This document shows, piece after piece, positions 1 to 10,591 of a stretch of 64,000 nucleotides of DNA. The notes below the pieces were generated by a model, which was given only the letters and a program-made list of their open reading frames with translations, was not told where the DNA came from and searched no databases. Numbering within the stretch: position 1 is the first letter of the stretch; every line of letters starts with the position of its first letter. The translations under genes were made by a program, and so were the position numbers. Origin of the DNA: Phocaeicola sp. (lineage in GTDB: Bacteria > Bacteroidota > Bacteroidia > Bacteroidales > Bacteroidaceae); the NCBI GenBank assembly GCA_045121515.1, contig JBGVGD010000021.1, forward strand, positions 21,955-85,954, written 5' to 3'.

Positions 1-2
1 TA

Positions 3-230
3 CTGGACGGAGTGGCTGCTGTTGTTTTTCTCTTGAAAGGGGAGAAGGAGGCTGCCAAGGCGGTGCTTCAGGCCCGCAAGGAGTTCAAGCGTATCCGTCC
101 GGATTTTGAATCTTCCCGTGGGGAGAATTTGGCGAAGGCTGTAACCGATGCTATACCGGAGAAGGTGGCCTATAGCATCTTGTGGAAATTCCATGCTTGT
201 GGTAAAAAGTCCTTTTCCAAGTTAAATTAA
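3..230 (+). CDS. C-terminal part of a probable family-2 glycosyltransferase (5' end outside the window)
   Basis: Frame is open from the window edge (LDGVAAVVFLLKG...SILWKF...FSKL*). It resembles the C-terminal tail of Bacteroides GT2 proteins; no catalytic domain is visible. Confidence 0.5.
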   Translation: MDGVAAVVFLLKGEKEAAKAVLQARKEFKRIRPDFESSRGENLAKAVTDAIPEKVAYSILWKFHACGKKSFSKLN

Positions 231-301
231 ATATTATTTGAAGTATACTTTGAGATAATTTTGTATTTTTGCAAAGTATGGTTTTAAAATAATATCGAAA
301 T

Positions 302-535
302 ATGGAAACAACTATGAATGTCAACATTAGTTTGCCCCAATCGGAATTTGTCATGTTGAAGAAATTGGCAAAGGCATTAGGGTGGAATCTTTTTGTACAA
401 CAAGAGGATGAGTCTATCAATGTGCAGCAAAGAAGTGAATTAGTTCAGAAATTGTATGGATGTGTACAGTTGTCGGAGGATTTTGATTATAAGGCAGAAT
501 TGGAACAGGTTCTTTCTGAAAAGTATAAGTTATGA
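302..535 (+). CDS. Putative type II antitoxin (DUF6364-like C-terminus)
   Basis: 77 aa; C-terminal LYGCVQLSEDFDYKAELEQVLSEKY resembles the tails of antitoxins found before PIN genes; its stop overlaps the PIN start (ATGA at 532-535). Confidence 0.7.
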   Translation: METTMNVNISLPQSEFVMLKKLAKALGWNLFVQQEDESINVQQRSELVQKLYGCVQLSEDFDYKAELEQVLSEKYKL

Positions 536-1002
536 AGAGGAAGATATTTTTAGATACTAATGTCGTCATTGATTATTTGGCTAAGCGTGTTCCTTTTGGG
601 GAAGAGGCTTTTCGAATCTTTTCCCTTTCACCTAGATATCACCAATTATGTATTTCTGCACTATCATTCACAACGGTTTTCTATGTTTTAAGAAAGCATC
701 ATGAGCATGGAATGCTTCTGGATATGCTGACTTCTTTGCAACAGCTCGTTGAAGTATTGCCGACAGATGATGATATAATAAGATTGGCTCTAAATTCAGG
801 TTTCTCGGATTTTGAAGATGCTGTACAGTATTATACAGCGTTGGCAGGAAATGTATCTTATATTGTAACTCGTAATCCTAAAGATTTTGGAAAGGCGGTA
901 ATACCTGTTTATACTCCAACTGAATTTCTGCAAATACCATATTGGTTAGATGAATCTAGTCATACGATTCTTAATGACCCAGAAATACCATATAGAAAAT
1001 AG
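532..1002 (+). CDS. PIN-domain (VapC-like) toxin
   Basis: Motifs IFLDTNVVID, DFEDAVQY and IVTRNPKDF carry the PIN acidic residues; translationally coupled to the small upstream ORF. Confidence 0.88.
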   Translation: MKRKIFLDTNVVIDYLAKRVPFGEEAFRIFSLSPRYHQLCISALSFTTVFYVLRKHHEHGMLLDMLTSLQQLVEVLPTDDDIIRLALNSGFSDFEDAVQYYTALAGNVSYIVTRNPKDFGKAVIPVYTPTEFLQIPYWLDESSHTILNDPEIPYRK

Positions 1003-1074
1003 TAGGGTAATAACTAGTAATTTTCTTTTGATAAGTTCACTTTTGTCAAAATAGGATAAATATGTGATAATCAA

Positions 1075-1111
1075 CGGGATGGCGTGATAAAATACCTGTC
1101 ACACCCTCCCG
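1075..1111. terminator. Hairpin after the TA operon
   Basis: CGGGATGGCGTGATA...TGTCACACCCTCCCG imperfect inverted repeat followed by TTTT. Confidence 0.5.
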
Positions 1112-1115
1112 TTTT

Positions 1116-1245
1116 CGTCACAGAGGCACTACTTGATACATGCTTCCTTCGCGGGTATGCATTCGGGGGATTTCCATGGCTCGCACATTCCCGCCACGAA
1201 GGGCTGCCGGGAATCCGCAGAAGAACTAGCCTGAAGATGCTGACG
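1116..1245. other. GC-rich, self-complementary ~130-nt element of unknown type
   Basis: Ends CGTCA/TGACG pair; internal arms TTCCTTCGCGG/CCGCAGAAGAA and ATTCCCG/CGGGAAT pair; GC-rich within an AT-rich intergenic region. Confidence 0.35.
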
Positions 1246-1254
1246 TTTTAATCT

Positions 1255-1340
1255 TTCCACATACTGTGGATAGAACGTTCCACATATAGTGGAAAGCCCG
1301 TTCCATATAATGTGGAAAAGTCCTTCCACATATAGTGGAA
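1255..1340. repeat. Four 17-bp palindromic units, TTCCAC-N5-GTGGAA, with an exact 23-bp period
   Basis: Units start at 1255, 1278, 1301 and 1324 (TTCCACATACTGTGGAT, TTCCACATATAGTGGAA, TTCCATATAATGTGGAA, TTCCACATATAGTGGAA), separated by 6-bp variable linkers. Confidence 0.9.
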
Positions 1341-1537
1341 CGATTAATATGTCAAGGTGTTTGGGTTAGTTCATGTGTATGAAATTGATATTACTGAATG
1401 GATTAATTACAGGAATAACTATTGAAAGGACGTTAATGCTTATTATAAATAAAAAGTAAACATTTTTATTTTAAAATATTTGGAGAATCCGTTTTTTTTT
1501 TTTGTAGCTTTGCACTTTCGATAAGAGATTGATCTAC

Positions 1538-2626
1538 ATGAAAAAGAAAATCTACATATTGGGAGTGCTGGCTACACTATGCCTATTGGGTACGGGTTAT
1601 TATGCTTGGACGCTGTACGATGCTTATCGCAAGCAGGTGGCGGAATGGAACGAGGGGGCGAAGGTCGCTTTCGAGGAAGCGTTGTGGCTAGAAGTGAATA
1701 AGCGGGCGGAGACTCCAATTTTTCATTATTCGGACGAACATCCAGGAATGAAAACATTAAATGCCAAAATTCCAGAAACTGTTCGTATGATGACACCAGA
1801 AGGTTTCTTGAAGTACAAAATTGAACGTAAGAAATATGACCTTAGTCTAATTAAAGATACTGAAAGAAGGGCGCTTTTAGGTGCATTGTTAGAAACTAAT
1901 CCTTTTTCTATTGATACTTTAATGATTCTGTGGGACAGTTTGCTTGCTGATCGACAAGTACCGGGAAAAAGCCTAATCCGCTATATTTATACGGATTGGG
2001 AATTACGTGATGATACGATTTGTGTTCCGGTAGATGAGAAAATGGTACGTTCTGACAGTTTGACTACCAGATATCTTGGTTTCCGTTGCGAACATGAATT
2101 TGTAGCATATATTTCTTATTCGTTTTGGAAATCAGATTTGTTGTCTCTTGCCGTATGTAGGTTGGTGTTACCTTGGATAGTATGGGGACTTCTGTTCTTT
2201 TTTTATGCTCCTTTGGAGAAATTCTTGCAGAAAAAATTGGTTCGTAAGGAGGTGGTCGAACGGGAAATTCATGTGGCAGATGTGACTATTGAAAAGGCAA
2301 AAATCTATCAACTTCCTGATGGTAGTTTGTTCGATAAGATTGCTGGAACATTGATGAAAGAAGGGTTGACAAAACAACTTCCTCCTCAATCCATAATTCT
2401 GTTGGCGTTATTTTTAAGTAAGGAAAGCCACCGTTTATCTTCGTCTGAAATAGAGCAGGAATTGTGGAATGGTAGAGGGTCTGCCGAAAAACTACGTCAA
2501 GCAATTCAGCGGTTAAGAAGAGACTTGAAAGCGGTTTCTTCTGATGTGTTCATAAAAAACGTAAATGGCGATTATGAGTTAAAATTGTCCATTTCATCGA
2601 AGAATTTGGCTGTGACGGATGCCTAA
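1538..2626 (+). CDS. Membrane-anchored one-component regulator: TM, periplasmic domain, TM, C-terminal OmpR-type winged helix
   Basis: N-terminal hydrophobic helix, second TM (LVLPWIVWGLLFFFY), C-terminal wHTH-like segment (LSSSEIEQELWNG...KLRQAIQRLRRDL...NGDYELK). ATG at 1538 preferred over TTG at 1529. Confidence 0.8.
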   Translation: MKKKIYILGVLATLCLLGTGYYAWTLYDAYRKQVAEWNEGAKVAFEEALWLEVNKRAETPIFHYSDEHPGMKTLNAKIPETVRMMTPEGFLKYKIERKKYDLSLIKDTERRALLGALLETNPFSIDTLMILWDSLLADRQVPGKSLIRYIYTDWELRDDTICVPVDEKMVRSDSLTTRYLGFRCEHEFVAYISYSFWKSDLLSLAVCRLVLPWIVWGLLFFFYAPLEKFLQKKLVRKEVVEREIHVADVTIEKAKIYQLPDGSLFDKIAGTLMKEGLTKQLPPQSIILLALFLSKESHRLSSSEIEQELWNGRGSAEKLRQAIQRLRRDLKAVSSDVFIKNVNGDYELKLSISSKNLAVTDA

Positions 2627-2645
2627 CAAGATATGAAAATATGCT

Positions 2646-2702
2646 TGGTCACTAATGGTCACTCCGTAAATAACAGAAATTTCTATATCCATATTACTTT
2701 TA
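2646..2702 (+). promoter_or_regulatory. TGGTCACT direct repeat (10-bp period) upstream of a degenerate -7 box
   Basis: TGGTCACT at 2646-2653 and 2656-2663; TACTTTTA at 2695-2702 is one mismatch from TAnnTTTG. Confidence 0.4.
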
Positions 2703-2920
2703 CATCGTGAATGTCGGGCTCTGTTACTTATTATGATAGAAATGGAGATGATACAATCTAGTTAAAATGGAAATCTATTCCGGGATTATAATAGTCAAAG
2801 TGTAGTTTGGAACATATAGGAGAGTTTGTAACAAACAAGGGTTTGATATAAATTCTCCTTTGTCTATATAGAGAGAAAAAGGCTGAATAATTATAATGTA
2901 ACTTATTGAATGACAAAGAT

Positions 2921-3934
2921 ATGAAGAACGTAATCTTTATTATGCTGATATTTTTATTTGTGCAATGTACAAATAAAAATGATACTGTCGGGTATTATTT
3001 TGATGTCTGTCAGGATTTATATTTGGAAGAAATAAAGTATCCTGAAATATTGGGGGATCCGATGCAGATGTTGAAAAAAGATAGTATTTTATTTATAAAT
3101 GATTATTTTGGTGATTCATTGATTCATATGTATAATTTGAATTCTCATAAGGTCGAAAGAAAATTAGTGTCAAAAGGAAATGGACCAAATGAATTAATTC
3201 CTCCTCTGGAAATTCAATATCAGAATAATAAATTATGGATTCTTAGTAGACCTTTGCATCTATTGTATAATATATCTTTGAATGAAATGTCTCCTTTGAA
3301 TTCGCTGTCTAAAAATGGTGTCGTGAAAAGTGAATCTGATTGTTTTGTTGTTTTACCAGATAATAAAATTGTATTTTCGGGATTCTGGGACAATAGATAT
3401 GCCTTTGGTGAGATTTCAAATTTACAGTCAGTTAAAGAATTTGGTGAATATCCTAATTTTTGGAATGAAGAAAGTTCAATACCCCAACACGTGAAAGCAA
3501 TGTTTCATCAATGTCGTTTTGCGGTAAATAAAAAAAGACAAAAGTTGGTGTCATGTTCTTATTTTGTTTTAGAAATATTTGATATTAAGGGTGATGTTAT
3601 GCCTGAACTTGCTTTTAGAAAACAATTAGGAAGATATACATATGATTATATTGCAACAGAGCAAATCAGGACGAAAATGAGAACAGGATGTGATCCTGTA
3701 ACGATTGATGTGGTAGCGACTGATGAGTATTTATATTTGTTGATGCAAGATTCTGATAATAAAAAAAATAGAAATATAGCAGTAATAGATTGGTCAGGTG
3801 AGCCTGTGAAATTATTGAAATCAGGAAAGCGTATTCTTTGTTTTACAATAGATGAAAAGGAGCGAAAAGGATATTGTGCTGTTGAAGATGGGGAAATTAA
3901 ATTGATGTCTTTTGATTTGGACGAATGGGAATAA
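2921..3934 (+). CDS. BF3164-like / TolB-like 6-bladed beta-propeller lipoprotein
   Basis: Lipoprotein signal ending FVQ-C; KGNGPNEL and ...IAVIDWSGEPVKLL motifs typical of this Bacteroides propeller family. Confidence 0.75.
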   Translation: MKNVIFIMLIFLFVQCTNKNDTVGYYFDVCQDLYLEEIKYPEILGDPMQMLKKDSILFINDYFGDSLIHMYNLNSHKVERKLVSKGNGPNELIPPLEIQYQNNKLWILSRPLHLLYNISLNEMSPLNSLSKNGVVKSESDCFVVLPDNKIVFSGFWDNRYAFGEISNLQSVKEFGEYPNFWNEESSIPQHVKAMFHQCRFAVNKKRQKLVSCSYFVLEIFDIKGDVMPELAFRKQLGRYTYDYIATEQIRTKMRTGCDPVTIDVVATDEYLYLLMQDSDNKKNRNIAVIDWSGEPVKLLKSGKRILCFTIDEKERKGYCAVEDGEIKLMSFDLDEWE

Positions 3935-4160
3935 AGGTGCTGAGTGTATATGGCTGAAGAGAATAAGATATGGAAGGTTGTTAAAGGTAGATTATTTATT
4001 TAATGCTCAAAAGTCTGAAATGTTGTCAGATGTTGCTTTGGCTAATGTAGAAGCATTGGCTGGAGAAGAATGGGATGGAGATAATCATTGCTTTATGGAT
4101 ACTGTCTTTTGGGCTTGTTTGAAGTATGCAACAGGAGTAGGTTGTTATTGTGGCTTATAA
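3912..4160 (+). CDS. NVEALA-family small peptide with a 4-Cys C-terminal core; N-terminus degenerate, in-frame ATG at 4020
   Basis: Translation contains NAQKSEMLSDVALANVEALAGEE (NVEALA codons at 4044-4061), followed by WDGDNHCFMDTVFWACLKYATGVGCYCGL*. Confidence 0.7.
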   Translation: MIWTNGNKGAECIWLKRIRYGRLLKVDYLFNAQKSEMLSDVALANVEALAGEEWDGDNHCFMDTVFWACLKYATGVGCYCGL

Positions 4161-4208
4161 TAATATTGTATGGGGAATACCCCATCCAATTATAAAATTT
4201 CAAATGAT

Positions 4209-5372
4209 ATGAGATTACGGCTATTTAGTATAATTTGTTCGTTGGCTTGTTTTTCGTGTCAATCAGGGAAACAAGAAGCGTTGAAATATCGGTTAGAAGA
4301 AACGGCAGATACCTTGTCTTTTGAAATGTCGTCCAATTCTTCTTTGTTCATCAAATCAATGTCCGTATTTCAGGATGATGAGGGTAAGGAATATATGACT
4401 TTTATGAGTAATGAGGCGGAGGAAATCTATGTATATGACTTGATGACAGAAAATTTGGTAAAGACTATTTCCTATGATATGGAAGGCGCAAACGGTGTTG
4501 GACCGAAAGCGGCAGGCTTTCTGATGAAAAGTTGGAATGAGATATTCATACCTAACCTCTATTTGCCGGAAATCTCGTTGATAGATAGTTGCGGCTATAA
4601 AAAACAAACCTACAAATTGGACAGTCTGGGAAATGGATATGGATTTATACCTACCCGTTCAACCATAGGTACTCCTTTTGTTCTATATGAGGATTTATTG
4701 TTTGGAATGCAGTTACCTAACATGCGTTTGGGAGAAGATGCCGTTACGAATAGTCCGGTGGGATTGATGCTTGATTTAGGTAAGAAGGAGATTGATCTCG
4801 CTCCCTTCCATTATCCGCATTCCGTCATGAAAAATTCCCAGAAGCCATCGTTAGGGATTGAAACCAAAATGAGCTATTGTTTCAATGGAGAAGAATTGGT
4901 ATTGTCTTTTGCTTTCGATGAAACTTTATATAAGATGCCGTTGAAAGGGGGAACCACTACATCGCATATCGCATCAAGTTCTTATCTTGGAAAAATCTCT
5001 TTGCCGGAAAAAGTTCCTTCAGACTTGATTCTTGCGGCAAAAGAAATGTGCGAATTGCCTATTTATGGGAATATCATATATGATAAATACAGAAATGTAT
5101 ATTATCGGGTCGCTTATCCCCAAAAAGACTATGATATGGATGAAAACTTTGTTGAATTGTGGCAGTCGGGACGAGGTGAATTTTCGATAATGATTTTGGA
5201 TGAAGGTTTGAATGTCATCGGTGAGACTTTGCTCCCGGAAAATAAATATCGTTCAGACCTCATGTTACTTCTTGAAGATGGTTTATACATCAGCACCAGT
5301 CATTATAAGAATACAGCTTTCAATGAAGACCGTTTGGAATTTCAACGTTTTACCCTTTCTGCTATGAGGTAA
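4209..5372 (+). CDS. DUF4221-like beta-propeller lipoprotein
   Basis: Lipobox CFS-C; GANGVG, YGNIIYDKYRNVYYRVAYP and FSIMILDEGLNVIGETLLP motifs. Confidence 0.75.
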   Translation: MRLRLFSIICSLACFSCQSGKQEALKYRLEETADTLSFEMSSNSSLFIKSMSVFQDDEGKEYMTFMSNEAEEIYVYDLMTENLVKTISYDMEGANGVGPKAAGFLMKSWNEIFIPNLYLPEISLIDSCGYKKQTYKLDSLGNGYGFIPTRSTIGTPFVLYEDLLFGMQLPNMRLGEDAVTNSPVGLMLDLGKKEIDLAPFHYPHSVMKNSQKPSLGIETKMSYCFNGEELVLSFAFDETLYKMPLKGGTTTSHIASSSYLGKISLPEKVPSDLILAAKEMCELPIYGNIIYDKYRNVYYRVAYPQKDYDMDENFVELWQSGRGEFSIMILDEGLNVIGETLLPENKYRSDLMLLLEDGLYISTSHYKNTAFNEDRLEFQRFTLSAMR

Positions 5373-5380
5373 TAACCCAA

Positions 5381-5449
5381 GAGAACTAAAAAAGGAGAGA
5401 AAGAACCCTAAACCTGAAACAGAATTCTTTTCTCTCCTTACCAGTTCTC
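5381..5449. terminator. Long imperfect hairpin between lipoprotein genes
   Basis: GAGAACT...AAGGAGAGAAAGAA pairs with TTCTTTTCTCTCCTT...AGTTCTC. Confidence 0.45.
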
Positions 5450-5521
5450 CTTAAAAAAAGAAAGGAGGTCGCAAAATATTTAAACTTTGTATGTGTAAAT
5501 AGCTCTTTCTAAAAAAACTTT

Positions 5522-5944
5522 ATGATGAAACAGATTGGTTTTTATAGTATAAGCAGAGGTATTTGTTGGGGGATATTGTCTATCGTTTTTTTTATGTTTG
5601 GATGTAGTCGTGAGTCTGTGTGCGGCTTGGATGGTTTCACTGACATTTCAGCTTTGACAATAAAAGATACAATAGAATTGGAAGATAAGAATATTCTTAA
5701 TCCTCATCATATTTATTATAAGGATAGTTTCCTTATTTTTACTAGTCTCCGTGGACAAAGAGAAATTCAATTGCTAAATCTTTTTACAGAAAAGGTAACG
5801 GAATATAATGTGATAGGACAGGGCAGAAATGAAATGTCAGGTTATCATACAGTCCGTACAAATAGTAATAATATGTATTTGTTCGCAGATAATCGTTCGG
5901 GAAAGATTTATAGGGTATGTTTGGACTCTTTAAGAGATAAATGA
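5522..5944 (+). pseudogene. Truncated BF3164-like propeller lipoprotein (N-terminal 140 aa only)
   Basis: Lipobox FG-C and IGQGRNEM motif as in the 2921 paralogue, but it stops after 140 aa where base composition changes abruptly. Confidence 0.7.
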
Positions 5945-6110
5945 CGGGACAAAAGGCTGGAAGTCGTTGGGACGACAAACGGCCGTCACCAATGAAGTCC
6001 ATTATGAGAACATTCCCCGTAATGCCCTGTTATGGTTGCGTGATTTGACCCGTGGAAAAGAGGAACAGGTTTTCATCCTGAGAGACGGGGAACAGTATTT
6101 CTATCGATAA
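5940..6110 (+). pseudogene. Orphan 3' end of a large exported protein (transglutaminase/discoidin-type gene typical of these loci)
   Basis: NDGTKGWKSLGRQTAVTNEVHYENIPRNALLWLRDLTRGKEEQVFILRDGEQYFYR* with no start codon; in-frame stop at 5931-5933. Family assignment is from memory of similar C-termini. Confidence 0.55.
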
Positions 6111-6121
6111 CCGGAGCTGCC

Positions 6122-7435
6122 ATGAAAGTAGTGACGTTCATCATCACTTGGTTACTGATACTCGCCGGTTCGGTGGAAGCCGTCTGGGGCTTGCTTCAGG
6201 TGTACGGTTACGAACCGTCCAACCATTCGCTGTATGCATTGACAGGTTCGTTCTATAATCCGGGTCCGTATTCGGGTTTCTTGGCGATGTGTGTACCTGT
6301 GGCATTTAATGAATGGTTGGAGGGAAAGAGGATTTGGAAACCTATGGCATTGGTGGCACTGGTATTAATGCTGGTGGTGCTTCCTTCGGGCATGAGCCGT
6401 TCGGCCTGGGTGGCTGCCTTGGTGGCTTCGGGGTATGTGTTGGGTATGCACTATCGGGAAAAGGTATGCCGGTATTGGAAATACTTTTGTGTTGGTAGTT
6501 TATTGTTGGCAGTGCTTGGTGTCGGTGCCTACCTTTGGAAGAAGGATTCTGCCGACGGTCGGTTGCTGATGTGGAAGGTAGCGACTCTGGCGGTGTTGGA
6601 GCATTCTTGGCAAGGTGTCGGTTGGGAGAATGTGGCAGGAGCGTATGGGGATGCCCAAGAAAGATATTTTGCATCGGGTATGGCTACAGAGCAGGAAGCA
6701 CATGTGGCTGGTGCACCGGAATATGTGTTCAATGAGTACTTGCAGGTGGCAATGGCTTGGGGTGTTCCGGCTTTGTGCGGTATCTTGTTGTTGGTAGGCG
6801 TTTGTTTCTACTTGGGGCATCGGGATAGGCAGTTTGGTGTATGCGGTGCGCTGCTTTCATTGGCAGTTTTTGCTTTTTCGTCCTATCCTTTCTAATTTAT
6901 GGAGTTTATAGTGGCTTTCATTGCCTTGCTGGTGGTTTGCTTGCTGAGGTTTCGCAATGTGTACTTGCAAGTGTCGGTATTGGTTATTGGTATAGGTGTC
7001 GGTCTTTATCTGTATGATTCTAGAGAAGAACATCCGATGCGGAAAGCTCATACGATGTTCGAGCGTGCTCATTCCTTGCACAAGGCAGGGGAATGGGAGG
7101 TTTCTACGGAACTGTTGATGGAAATAATGCGGATAAGTAGCGATGCAATGGTGCTGAACATCATCGGAAAGAACAGTCAGGCATTGGGGCAATATCAAGA
7201 GGCGGAACATTGGTTTATCCGTTCCACTCATCGGTTGCCGAACCGTATCTATCCTTACTATCTGTTGGCCAAACTGTATGCGGAGCATCCCAAGTATTTC
7301 CCAAGAGAGAAATTGGAGTGGGCGGTACGAATGGTACTGGAGAAGGAAGCGAAGGTAGAATCGACGGCTATTAAGCAGATGAGGGAGGAAGTAAAGTTAT
7401 TGTTGGATAAAAATCAATCATTCTATGGAAAGTAG
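6122..7435 (+). pseudogene. O-antigen-ligase-family membrane protein with C-terminal TPR, split by an in-frame TAA
   Basis: TGSFYNPGPY, DSADGRLLMW and FNEYLQ motifs; ORFs 6122-6895 and 6899-7435 share a frame (SYPF*FMEF, TAA at 6893-6895); TPR-like tail follows. Confidence 0.8.
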
Positions 7436-7589
7436 GGAAACAATCAAGGAAGAACTTGGTCAGTTGTTGGAAAACTATTATAACGGTTCTTTTGCACAAT
7501 TGGTGCGTGACTATATCCGTTCTACGAGAATGACAAAGCAGGAGTTGGAGCAGGTGTTGGAGGAGATGAGAAAAGTAAAAGGGGCATGA
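7425..7589 (+). CDS. 54-aa mini-protein resembling the C-terminal dimerisation tail of BlaI/MecI/CopY repressors
   Basis: Missing from the ORF track. MESRETIKEELGQLLENYYNGSFAQLVRDYIRSTRMTKQELEQVLEEMRKVKGA*; overlaps the upstream stop and ends in the hairpin AAAAGGGGC-ATGAA-GCCCCTTTT. Confidence 0.55.
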   Translation: MESRETIKEELGQLLENYYNGSFAQLVRDYIRSTRMTKQELEQVLEEMRKVKGA

Positions 7590-7597
7590 AGCCCCTT

Positions 7598-7966
7598 TTA
7601 TCGTATGTAATGCGCTTCCACTCCAACACGCTGTGCGCACGCTCCCATGGGTGGGTTCTCCTTAAACAAGGATATGTCAATCGTTTCAATCGTAGGGAAG
7701 TCGTGGAGGAGGCGACGGGCAATACGTTGGCATACGTGTTCCAATAGTTGGGAGGTGATTTGCATCTCTTCCTTGACTGCTGCATGGATGTCGGCATAGT
7801 TCACGGTTCCTTCCAGTTCGTCGGTTTCGGCAGCACGACTGAAATCGGTCTTCAGTCTCAAGTCGATATAGTAATTGGCTCCTACAAGGTTTTCTTGCGG
7901 GAGTACTCCGTGAAAGGCGTAGAACTTCATGCCTTCTAAACGTATGTACATGTGGTTGGCTTGCAT
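7598..7966 (-). CDS. folB: Dihydroneopterin aldolase
   Basis: FYAFHGVLPQE and TVNYA motifs; LLEHV; KENPP. Confidence 0.93.
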   Translation of the reverse strand: MQANHMYIRLEGMKFYAFHGVLPQENLVGANYYIDLRLKTDFSRAAETDELEGTVNYADIHAAVKEEMQITSQLLEHVCQRIARRLLHDFPTIETIDISLFKENPPMGACAQRVGVEAHYIR

Positions 7967-8053
7967 AATGTGAGATTGAAATAAAAGCCCCTCCGTTCAT
8001 GAAGGTATGAAGAAGGGGCTTGAGTATATATAAATGATTGAGTAATTCCGGAT

Positions 8054-10591
8054 TTATCCGCAACGTGAAGTACCGCAGTTCTTGCAGATGAGGCAACCTT
8101 CTTGGTATATCAAGGTTTCCTGACCGCAGTTCGGACATTTCTGGCCTTCGGCCTTGGTACCGTCTACTACGTATTTCTTCAAAGCGCGTTCCACACCGTT
8201 CTTCCAGGTGTTGATGTTTTCGCTATCCAATTGGAGCGAGTCAACCAACTTGATGACACGGTCGATTGGCATTCTCCAACGAAGGACACCCGAAATCAAT
8301 TTGGCGTAGTTCCAATATTCCTTGTTGAATTTTTCAGACAACCCTTCGATGGTAGTCTTGTAGCCACGCTTGTTTTCGAATTGGAAGTCGTAATGCTTGT
8401 GGCCGTCTTCGTCTACATTCTTGATGATACGACCGCTAGTTACTGACTTTGGCAACAAGATGCCTTCTTCATCGTCTTGAAGACCGGTGAAGATTTCGTA
8501 TGGATGTCCGTCGAGCAAACCTACAAAGGCTACCCATTTTTCCTTGTTGTTCTGGAAACGGATGACATCGGCTTCCAATACCTTCGGACGAACTTCTACT
8601 ACATCCGGTTGCTTGCAGATAGGTACTTCCTGTTTCTTGTTTTCCTTGGTAGAAATCAAGACACCTGCACGAGAACCGTCACGATATACGGTACATCCCT
8701 TACATCCCGAGCGCCATGCTTCTACATAGAGGCGGTTCACCAATTCTTCATCCACATCGTTCGGCAAGTTGATAGTCACACTGATAGAATGGTCTACCCA
8801 CTTCTGGATTCTTCCCTGCATCTTTACCTTCATCAACCAGTCTACATCGTTTGAAGTAGCCTTGTTGTAAGGTGACTGAGCAACGAGGTCGTCAATTTCT
8901 TCTTGGGTATAACGTTTCTTGGTGTCAATGCCATTGGCTTCCATCCAAGTGAGGAACTTGTGGTGGTAAACAATGTATTCTTCGAATGCGTCACCGGTTT
9001 CGTCCACGAAGTCTACGTGTACTTGTGGGTCGTTCGGATTTACTTTTCTTCTGCGCTTGTAAACCGGCATGAAGACTGGTTCGATACCCGAGGTTGTTTG
9101 AGTCATCAAACTGGTAGTACCGGTAGGAGCGATAGTCAAACATGCGATGTTACGACGGCCATATTGCTTCATTTCTTCGTACAAAGCAGGATCGGCTTCC
9201 TTGATGCGGTTTACGAACGGATTGTTCTTTTCGCGTTCCCAGTCGTAGATTGCGAATGCGCCACGTTCCTTAGCCATGTTTACAGAAGAACGGTATGCTT
9301 CCAAGGCTACTGTCTTGTGTACTTCTTCAGAGAAAGCAGTTGCTTCTTCTGTACCATAGCGGAGACCCATAGCGGCAATCATGTCACCTTCTGCTGTGAT
9401 ACCTACACCGGTACGACGTCCTTGACCACTCTTCTTGTAGATCTTTTGCCACAAATGTCTTTCGGCTCCCTTCACTTCTTCGTTTTCAGGGTCGGATTCA
9501 ATCTTTTCCATAATCTTCTCGATTTTTTCCAACTCGAGGTCGATAATGTCATCCATGATACGTTGTGCCAAACCAACGTGCTTCTTGAACAATTCGAAGT
9601 CGAAGTAAGCATCCTTGGTAAATGGGTTGACTACGTATGAATAAAGGTTGATAGCCAACAAGCGGCAAGAATCGTACGGGCAAAGTGGAATTTCACCGCA
9701 TGGGTTGGTAGAAACCGTACGATAGCCAAGGTCGGCATAGCAATCTGGCACTGATTCGCGAAGAATGGTATCCCAGAACAATACACCCGGTTCTGCCGAT
9801 TTCCAAGCGTTGTGAACAATCTTTTTCCACAAAGCTGTAGCATCAATTTCTTTGGTGAATTGAGGTTCTGTTGCATCAATTGGATATTGTTGGATGTACG
9901 GAGTACCGTCTACGGCTGCTTGCATGAAAGCGTCGTCCAACTTAACAGATACATTAGCACCGGTTACTTTTCCTTCAGTCATCTTTGCATCGATGAAGGA
10001 TTCTGAATCCGGATGCTTGATAGATACACTCAACATCAAGGCACCACGACGACCGTCCTGGGCTACTTCGCGAGTGGAGTTAGAATAACGTTCCATGAAA
10101 GGAACCAAACCAGTAGATGTCAAAGCAGAGTTCTTTACTGGAGAACCTTTCGGGCGAATGTGTGATAAGTCATGACCTACACCACCACGACGTTTCATCA
10201 ATTGAACTTGTTCTTCGTCGATACGGATAATAGCACCGTAGGAGTCGGCTGCACCTTCCATACCGATTACGAAACAGTTGGACAAAGAAGCAACTTGGAA
10301 ATCATTTCCGATACCTGTCATCGGGCTTCCTTGTGGTACGATGTACTTGAAATGATCGAGTAATTCGAACAATTCTTGTGCACTTAACCCGTTGGCATAT
10401 TTTGCTTCGATACGGGCTACTTCATTGGCAATACGCCAATGCATATCTTCCGGAGATTGTTCATAAATGTTTCCGAAAGAGTCCTTTACTGCATATTTGT
10501 TTACCCAAACTCTTGCAGCCAATTCATCGCCTTTGAAATATTCCAGAGATTTGGCAAAGGCTTCATCGTAGGTGTAGGTTTGTTTTTCCAC
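8054..10591 (-). CDS. nrdJ: Adenosylcobalamin-dependent (class II) ribonucleoside-diphosphate reductase
   Basis: SLSNCFV, TNPCGEIPL and TIAPTGT motifs; C-terminal CPNCG...CKNCG...SRCG zinc-finger/cysteine tail. Confidence 0.95.
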   Translation of the reverse strand: MEKQTYTYDEAFAKSLEYFKGDELAARVWVNKYAVKDSFGNIYEQSPEDMHWRIANEVARIEAKYANGLSAQELFELLDHFKYIVPQGSPMTGIGNDFQVASLSNCFVIGMEGAADSYGAIIRIDEEQVQLMKRRGGVGHDLSHIRPKGSPVKNSALTSTGLVPFMERYSNSTREVAQDGRRGALMLSVSIKHPDSESFIDAKMTEGKVTGANVSVKLDDAFMQAAVDGTPYIQQYPIDATEPQFTKEIDATALWKKIVHNAWKSAEPGVLFWDTILRESVPDCYADLGYRTVSTNPCGEIPLCPYDSCRLLAINLYSYVVNPFTKDAYFDFELFKKHVGLAQRIMDDIIDLELEKIEKIMEKIESDPENEEVKGAERHLWQKIYKKSGQGRRTGVGITAEGDMIAAMGLRYGTEEATAFSEEVHKTVALEAYRSSVNMAKERGAFAIYDWEREKNNPFVNRIKEADPALYEEMKQYGRRNIACLTIAPTGTTSLMTQTTSGIEPVFMPVYKRRRKVNPNDPQVHVDFVDETGDAFEEYIVYHHKFLTWMEANGIDTKKRYTQEEIDDLVAQSPYNKATSNDVDWLMKVKMQGRIQKWVDHSISVTINLPNDVDEELVNRLYVEAWRSGCKGCTVYRDGSRAGVLISTKENKKQEVPICKQPDVVEVRPKVLEADVIRFQNNKEKWVAFVGLLDGHPYEIFTGLQDDEEGILLPKSVTSGRIIKNVDEDGHKHYDFQFENKRGYKTTIEGLSEKFNKEYWNYAKLISGVLRWRMPIDRVIKLVDSLQLDSENINTWKNGVERALKKYVVDGTKAEGQKCPNCGQETLIYQEGCLICKNCGTSRCG

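Follow-up and report, generated by a model that had tools for sequence, protein, structure and literature searches.

The question raised by this locus is whether a short open frame on the forward strand (3912-4160) is a working gene for a Cys-rich peptide of the NVEALA family or what is left of such a gene. The window, i.e., the whole stretch of 64,000 nucleotides that was analysed, corresponds to positions 21955-85954 of contig C21 in a draft genome of 79 contigs. The initial annotation had seen here an NVEALA precursor with an apparently lost export signal, the gene being either degenerate or starting at ATG 4020. Read from TTG 3912, the frame encodes 82 amino acids, with the residues quoted in that annotation (...KRIRYGRLLKVDYLFNAQKSEMLSDVALANVEALAGEEWDGDNHCFMDTVFWACLKYATGVGCYCGL). 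It overlaps by 23 nt the 3' end of the upstream gene, which encodes a six-bladed propeller lipoprotein (TolB_like, PF15869; 2921-3934, + strand) and is intact as judged from its profile match and from related contigs.

In a profile search, the 82-residue frame matches the Pfam family NVEALA (PF14055) with 27.6 bits (E 2.4e-6), residues 29-72 being aligned with profile positions 21-57 of 62. The curated gathering cut-off is 27 bits and is passed marginally. In the six-frame search of the genome the same locus obtains 26.8 bits, or 27.3 bits with neighbours. The 46-residue form that begins at the first in-frame ATG (4020-4160, + strand) obtains 25.1 bits, i.e., less than the cut-off. Both forms are proposed by gene callers (P0020, P0025 and P0027 for the shorter one). 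An NVEALA profile hit thus exists, and the missing profile positions 1-20 support the view of a precursor that has lost its export signal.

The part derived from an NVEALA gene is restricted to 3999-4160 (+ strand), hereafter the stump. It corresponds to codons 23-75 plus the stop codon of a precursor of 75 amino acids (98% nucleotide identity to intact genes); the first 29 codons of the 82-residue frame are of another nature. The stump contains the conserved leader block (FNAQKSEMLSDVALANVEALA) followed by a core of 32 amino acids with four Cys, the pattern of which is GEEWDGDNHCFMDT(T/V)FW(V/A)CLKYATGVGCYCGL. ANVEALA occupies residues 44-50 of the 82-residue frame, all its columns being invariant in alignment A2, and the four Cys of the core are at the invariant columns C53, C62, C71 and C73 of the same alignment. 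The layout described in the initial annotation, i.e., an intact conserved part followed by a variable Cys-rich core, is therefore correct.

The basic and hydrophobic N-terminal segment, present in the eight other NVEALA copies of the genome and in homologues elsewhere, is absent from the stump. No hydrophobic stretch is found upstream of 3999 when 3871-4022 is translated in the three frames, which agrees with the earlier remark that none is in frame; a frameshift as the cause of the signal loss is ruled out by the same three translations. The best 15-residue Kyte-Doolittle window of the 82-residue frame has a value of 1.15 and is located in the leader, while the N-terminal windows of the eight other copies range from 1.9 to 2.9. 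Among the nine NVEALA matches of the genome, this copy is the only one without profile positions 1-20. In all nine copies, small residues occupy positions -3 and -1 relative to the motif end (ALA, AFG or AEA). Homologues do not naturally lack the signal segment: five proteins with the same core carry it (P0004, P0111, P0112, P0017 and P0002) and, for nearly all of the more distant relatives, residue 1 of the query is aligned with residues 21-34 of the hit.

The comparison with intact genes locates the lesion. Window positions 3999-5464 are 98% identical to contigs that contain an intact gene (L022, L049 and L051). This homology ends abruptly at 3998/3999, i.e., at codon 23 of the intact gene, and there is none upstream. 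The truncated gene lacks 22 codons (start codon and signal anchor) as well as the conserved hairpin and promoter-like element that precede intact genes. Since homology starts sharply at 3999 and the upstream element is gone too, the lesion is a breakpoint and not a frameshift. Alignment of the upstream DNA had been proposed as a way to find a deletion or a frameshift; it does place the loss, at a rearrangement breakpoint, but neither a frameshift nor a point mutation is involved.

The segment that joins the TolB_like gene to the stump (3935-3998, + strand, 64 nt) is not derived from an NVEALA gene, as indicated by the identity among related contigs, the alignment of flanks and the lack of a hydrophobic frame. 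It is 100% identical in 9 related contigs. Its alignment with the DNA that flanks TolB_like homologues in 3' (80% and 75% protein identity) is weak; these homologues are followed by genes other than NVEALA, and one of their flanks reads AATACTCAAAA where the window reads AATGCTCAAAA. Judging from these alignments, the most likely origin of 3935-3998 is the DNA that natively follows the upstream TolB_like gene. An illegitimate joint may have formed at the microhomology AAT(G/A)CTCAAAA, which is proposed with low confidence. An internal deletion with a retained 5' end was also considered, positions 3950-3990 being weakly similar to NVEALA 5' ends in a MAFFT alignment with a gap of 32 nt. It is disfavoured by an identity of about 70% over 3950-3990 versus 98% just downstream. 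The origin from a TolB_like flank is preferred because the 64 nt align about equally well with those flanks as with the NVEALA ends.

This composition bears directly on the longest form. The whole frame from TTG 3912 might be a real protein of 82 amino acids, translationally coupled to the TolB_like gene, in view of the 29 open codons upstream of the NVEALA part, their overlap with the upstream stop and the calls mentioned above. It is nevertheless very improbable: the 29 additional residues correspond to a gene end read out of frame plus its 3' flank, match no family, are basic and non-hydrophobic, and vary among alleles (R19K, R22W, N7T). Moreover, in AT-rich DNA 29 consecutive codons without a stop are expected by chance about 1 time in 10 (rough estimate). 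A programmed frameshift that would fuse the first TolB_like gene to the stump was dropped as well, the overlap resulting from a secondary junction and no slippery site supporting it.

Two groups can be distinguished among the metagenome proteins that share the 32-residue core, (i) intact precursors of 75 amino acids (e.g., P0112: MNKKVLKVAFVAAIAMVSGINVFNAQKSEMLSDVALANVEALAGEEWDGDNHCFMDTTFWVCLKYATGVGCYCGL) and (ii) copies of the truncated frame (e.g., P0007). The truncated allele occurs in 192 assembly blocks produced by several assemblers; the signal loss is in other words a common allele of the lineage and not private to the genome studied. The intact allele P0111 occurs in 185 assembly blocks. 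Every truncated-allele contig examined has the order TolB_like (337 aa), stump, DUF4221, and these contigs are 99% identical to window 2717-5464. In three contigs (L049-L051), the intact allele occupies the corresponding site of the chromosome, with a glycosyltransferase gene on one side and FolB-RNR on the other. Over the RNR flank, identity to the window amounts to 96.2% for the intact-allele contigs and to 95.8% for a truncated-allele contig (L034); given this identity and the shared locus, both alleles therefore segregate within one species-level lineage. From F23 on, the consensus truncated allele equals the intact allele P0112 residue for residue, which indicates that the truncation is recent. 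The DUF4221 partner is 98-99.7% identical and free of stops in both kinds of contigs. Beyond this lineage, no relatives of the DUF4221 protein or of the core alignment were found among species representative genomes. Genus relatives have only the leader block in common with the stump at the DNA level, and the closest orthologues of the first TolB_like gene among genus representatives are 51% identical.

These counts also dispose of the idea that the repeated leader block created the truncation during assembly. A block of 63-77 nt is indeed common to NVEALA genes and the genome is a draft. These repeats are however just 85-90% identical, and contigs that stem from independent samples and were built by different assemblers show exactly the same junction, down to the base. 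With 192 blocks, several assemblers and a constant gene order, the probability of an artefact is practically negligible.

The best explanation, with a probability of roughly 0.8, is that 3999-4160 is a recent and non-exportable relic, i.e., the 3' two-thirds of an NVEALA precursor gene within a lipoprotein operon that is still intact. The intact product of 75 amino acids consists of a signal anchor of about 22 residues (MNKKVLKVAFVAAIAMVSGINV), an amphipathic leader ending in Ala-Leu-Ala and the 32-residue core with four Cys. Its N-terminal segment would direct it to the Sec pathway; it would then be cut after Ala-X-Ala by the S26 peptidase of the cluster, on the periplasmic side, and its disulfides would be formed by the oxidising machinery of the envelope. 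An AlphaFold2 prediction of the intact precursor from an alignment of 12 sequences has a mean pLDDT of 53, too low for comparing folds, and only a signal helix (3-27) and a leader helix (33-43) are modelled. In the truncated allele, a rearrangement would have joined the 3' flank of the first TolB_like gene to codon 23, thus removing the upstream element, the start codon and the hydrophobic segment. Any product of the stump, whether of 46 amino acids (from 4020) or of 82 (from 3912), would be retained in the cytoplasm. It would presumably be inert as an NVEALA peptide because it has no signal segment and hence no access to signal peptidase or to oxidation.

Some features do not plead for a relic. 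The frame is still open, and what remains of the gene shows no disabling change in the consensus of the truncated allele. The stump lies between two intact genes of the same orientation, and ATG 4020 has an A-rich upstream context; because of these flanking genes the stump is probably transcribed, if passively. A rival reading is a leaderless peptide of 46 amino acids that starts at ATG 4020 and has a cytoplasmic function of its own or another export route. The open, operon-internal frame belongs to a common allele (192 blocks) with unchanged retained residues in the consensus, and it is the form called by several gene callers. Such a peptide is quite unlikely all the same: it would retain one half of a leader for which no role other than processing in the envelope is evident, and place in a reducing compartment four Cys that are invariant in exported relatives. 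Its score (25.1 bits) is under the family cut-off, there is no transporter gene in the cluster, and its diversity is raised, including changes at invariant columns.

The latter point was quantified by comparing ten sequences that belong to the truncated lineage. Segregating sites number 7 in the 162 nt of the stump versus 19 in the 2178 nt of the two flanking genes (Fisher p=0.0014); it must be noticed that eight of the ten sequences were picked for an identical stump protein, so that this set is biased against variation in the stump. The pN/pS ratio is 0.61 for the stump versus 0.34-0.36 for the flanking genes, a difference that is not significant with such very small counts. Singleton truncated alleles have two C-terminal frameshifts, the deletion or replacement of an invariant Trp, and the changes Y72N, S32A and D48Y. 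The genome studied has T58V at a nearly invariant column of alignment A2. Taken together, these data are suggestive of a relaxed constraint. However, 2 of the 7 segregating sites of the stump resemble a conversion patch from a neighbouring paralogue; gene conversion from paralogues, more than decay, seems to account for some of the additional diversity. Three truncated alleles (P0019, P0028 and P0033) differ at window 4060-4080 by the in-frame gain or loss of a 15-nt unit, the outcome being GEALAGEALAG or the loss of EEWDG, which points to slippage at the repeat GCATTGGCTGGAGAA on the leader/core boundary.

The position of the breakpoint within the gene is shared with other rearrangements. In L043, which has an intact gene, the 5' part is 96% identical to the paralogue on contig C10 of the genome studied, and the 3' part is 98.6% identical to the window. 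Compared with L022, the same contig is 74-91% identical upstream of the position equivalent to 3999 and 99.7-100% identical downstream. In two independent samples (L047:120-470 and L048:76-426), a chimeric protein (P0093) is encoded: a DUF1573/thioredoxin-like lipoprotein contributes its first 62 codons, lipoprotein signal included, and these are joined in frame to NVFNAQKSE..., then to the leader and to the same core. The junction of this fusion is 6-9 nt from that of the stump. On the other side, the 3' end of the shared segment falls in an inter-cassette element (window 5380-5476 is 99% identical to L022 4801-4897). Since the mosaics switch at the leader block and the shared segment ends in this element, the set formed by leader block, core, DUF4221 gene and element thus behaves like an exchangeable cassette. 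On the basis of these alignments, cassettes recombine where the conserved leader block begins on its 5' side. The site can be localized to the first bases of that block in at least 4 independent contexts. Under the preferred reading, the relic would be a by-product of such an exchange, the illegitimate 5' joint having missed the signal-coding part. This is proposed because the junction lies at the 5' edge of a leader block found in all paralogues, where the other mosaics switch. In addition, a head-to-tail fusion of two NVEALA genes is found at the first NVEALA position of related contigs (L027:2388-2831); the second gene has no start of its own and is read through from the first, a further sign of frequent rearrangement.

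The inter-cassette element (5394-5476, + strand) consists of a hairpin of 12 bp (GGAGAGAAAGAA/TTCTTTTCTCTCC) followed by GAAAGGAGGTC(G/A)CAAAA. The loop is about 19 nt and GAAAGGAGGTCACAAAA stands behind it. The same hairpin, then GAAAGGAGGTCACAAAA and then CGTTTGCTTGTCTGCTGAAAGGATA, precedes intact NVEALA genes and is strongly conserved; the element stands before NVEALA genes in the interior of clusters and might be a terminator, a processing site or the target of a regulator. An NVEALA gene normally follows the copy at 5394-5476, and it is deleted in this genome. Copies are found at window 5394-5476, at C10:4004-4046 and at L022 4801-4897; the genome studied has only two. The comparison with intact genes reveals no such hairpin or upstream element before 3999, and no Bacteroides-type -33/-7 promoter pattern was found directly upstream of that position. 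The element has no Rfam match, and the Rfam, sigma-70 and terminator scans of window 1-9000 gave nothing meaningful.

The exchange of cassettes opens another possibility: the stump may be a silent cassette, without promoter and signal, whose leader block serves as a homology handle for the reactivation of core and DUF4221 by recombination, in a way that resembles orphan cdiA-CT/cdiI modules or pilS cassettes. The identical core is indeed found behind at least three signal/upstream contexts plus one lipoprotein fusion, all of them switching at the leader block; a second conserved repeat bounds the cassette in 3'; and the genome contains an expressed-type paralogue (C10) with 90% identity over a 63-nt block. 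The stump could well be untranslated at present under this hypothesis. Such a reserve is unlikely, as an exchange between intact genes would account for the mosaics just as well, a handle of 63 nt at 90% identity is short, and neither singleton frameshifts nor losses of invariant residues are expected if the core is under selection.

The rest of the cluster has decayed as well. In the syntenic intact cluster the genes are ordered regulator, NVEALA, TolB_like, DUF1573, NVEALA, DUF5128, NVEALA75 (i.e., the precursor of 75 amino acids) and DUF4221, continued by NVEALA, DUF4221, S26 peptidase, a protein of 609 amino acids, Wzy_C and an ORF of 55 amino acids. Contig C10 of the genome studied contains a complete paralogous cluster. 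The cluster in the window begins with an intact gene that encodes a membrane-anchored regulator with a C-terminal Trans_reg_C DNA-binding domain (1529-2626, + strand; profile match). It is followed by a remnant of a deleted first NVEALA gene, i.e., its last 15 codons or so (2716-2761, + strand; comparison of related contigs). The propeller lipoprotein gene DUF4221 (PF13970; 4209-5372, + strand; E 3.6e-39, frame open from 4170) stands directly downstream of the stump; it is intact and is the partner of the stump in the cassette. Behind it, a scar of 12 nt (5465-5476, + strand) replaces 316 nt (L026 6552-6867) that encode in L026 an NVEALA gene of 80 amino acids. A second TolB_like gene is reduced to its 5' 140 codons (5522-5944, + strand), homology to the 362-residue gene stopping at 5940, and only the last 47 codons of the gene for the 609-residue protein are left (5967-6110, + strand; comparison with related clusters). 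The remainder of the 609-residue gene is missing between 5940 and 5967, as is the S26 peptidase gene. The gene of a Wzy_C/TPR membrane protein (6122-7435, + strand) is split by an in-frame stop (6893-6895) where the C10 paralogue (8244-9548) has Gln (SYPF*FMEF versus SYPFQFLEF), and looks like a nonsense pseudogene. Neither S26 signal peptidase nor DUF1573 protein is encoded in window 1529-7590; the syntenic intact clusters (L049-L051) have both, as does the paralogous C10 cluster. In summary, two further NVEALA genes are deleted, a propeller gene is cut, S26 is absent and Wzy_C is interrupted, while the regulator, the first TolB_like gene and the DUF4221 gene remain intact amid this decay.

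Two observations concern the borders of the cluster. At its 3' side, an ORF of 54 amino acids (7425-7589) matches Penicillinase_R at profile positions 68-111 only (E 8e-4) and shares 30% identity with the C-terminal end of a complete BlaI-like gene (125 aa) that follows Wzy_C in the C10 cluster. The ORF of 55 amino acids at the same place in L049-L051 indicates that the short form is conserved in the lineage and is not a private decay. At its 5' side, a PIN-domain toxin-antitoxin pair (302-1002) lies between the end of the glycosyltransferase gene (1-229) and the regulator. L049-L051 have a VapE-like/DUF3874 gene at the same spot (window 230-1530), which is therefore a variable insertion spot.

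The genome contains about 39 genes of six-bladed propeller lipoproteins (7 PF15869, 7 PF13970 and about 26 PF17170) versus nine NVEALA matches, and an NVEALA-like ORF is found upstream of only 5 of the 39 in a crude screen. A second damaged NVEALA copy (locus L008, C57:55627-55734, - strand) has a TGA in its signal-coding part (KRF*TQLGLAFVAFTG...) and adjoins an intact paralogue.

The NVEALA family is already catalogued in Pfam and the stump is a probable relic member of it. With PF14055 genes, which have TolB_like (PF15869), DUF4221 (PF13970) and DUF5128 (PF17170) genes as neighbours, the stump shares the motif, the leader block and the Cys-rich tail. Its cluster also has the propeller lipoprotein gene downstream, the membrane Trans_reg_C regulator and the Wzy_C-like gene. 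It differs by the lack of profile positions 1-20, of a start codon of its own and of the upstream element, and its cluster lacks the S26 peptidase of the syntenic intact ones. The literature searched contained nothing in the relevant sense on NVEALA, on DUF4221 with Bacteroides or on the Pfam accessions. Like Sec signal peptides processed by type I signal peptidase at Ala-X-Ala, the nine NVEALA copies have small residues at -3/-1 and complete clusters carry an S26 peptidase; the Ala-X-Ala of NVEALA is however much farther than in ordinary signal peptides, i.e., about 20 residues past the hydrophobic segment. For the stump, whose hydrophobic segment is gone, this route would be closed. The NVEALA leader differs from that of class II double-glycine bacteriocins, including bacteroidetocins, in that a Sec-type hydrophobic segment comes first and Ala-Leu-Ala forms the end. 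Among those genes of the cluster that were scanned, none encodes an ABC or C39-peptidase exporter.

Orphan or decayed toxin genes with a conserved immunity gene next to them are known from the non-producer alleles of streptococcal blp loci, from orphan cdiA-CT/cdiI and from rhs-CT modules. As in these loci, (i) intact and 5'-truncated, promoter-less peptide alleles occur in one lineage with the partner gene kept, and (ii) recombination takes place in a conserved 5' block to which a variable 3' module is attached. The likeness lies in the population pattern of alleles. By analogy, this pattern, with the partner kept in both alleles, fits a putative polymorphism of producers and immune non-producers. 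Unlike in toxin/immunity loci, most propeller genes of the genome studied have no peptide partner (about 34 of 39 in the crude screen), which calls for caution. It is rather unlikely that strains with stump and DUF4221 are «non-producer but protected» strains of a species whose other members secrete this same four-Cys peptide, NVEALA cassettes weapon/immunity pairs and the stump a silent cassette that could be re-activated.

Taken alone, the stump is a gene relic and changes little. What the locus offers is a natural pair of genotypes in one lineage, i.e., an intact peptide gene versus a non-exportable stump beside the same partner lipoprotein (98-99.7% identity). Because of this pair, competition would be a direct test of the hypothetical protection conferred by the partner lipoprotein against the peptide.
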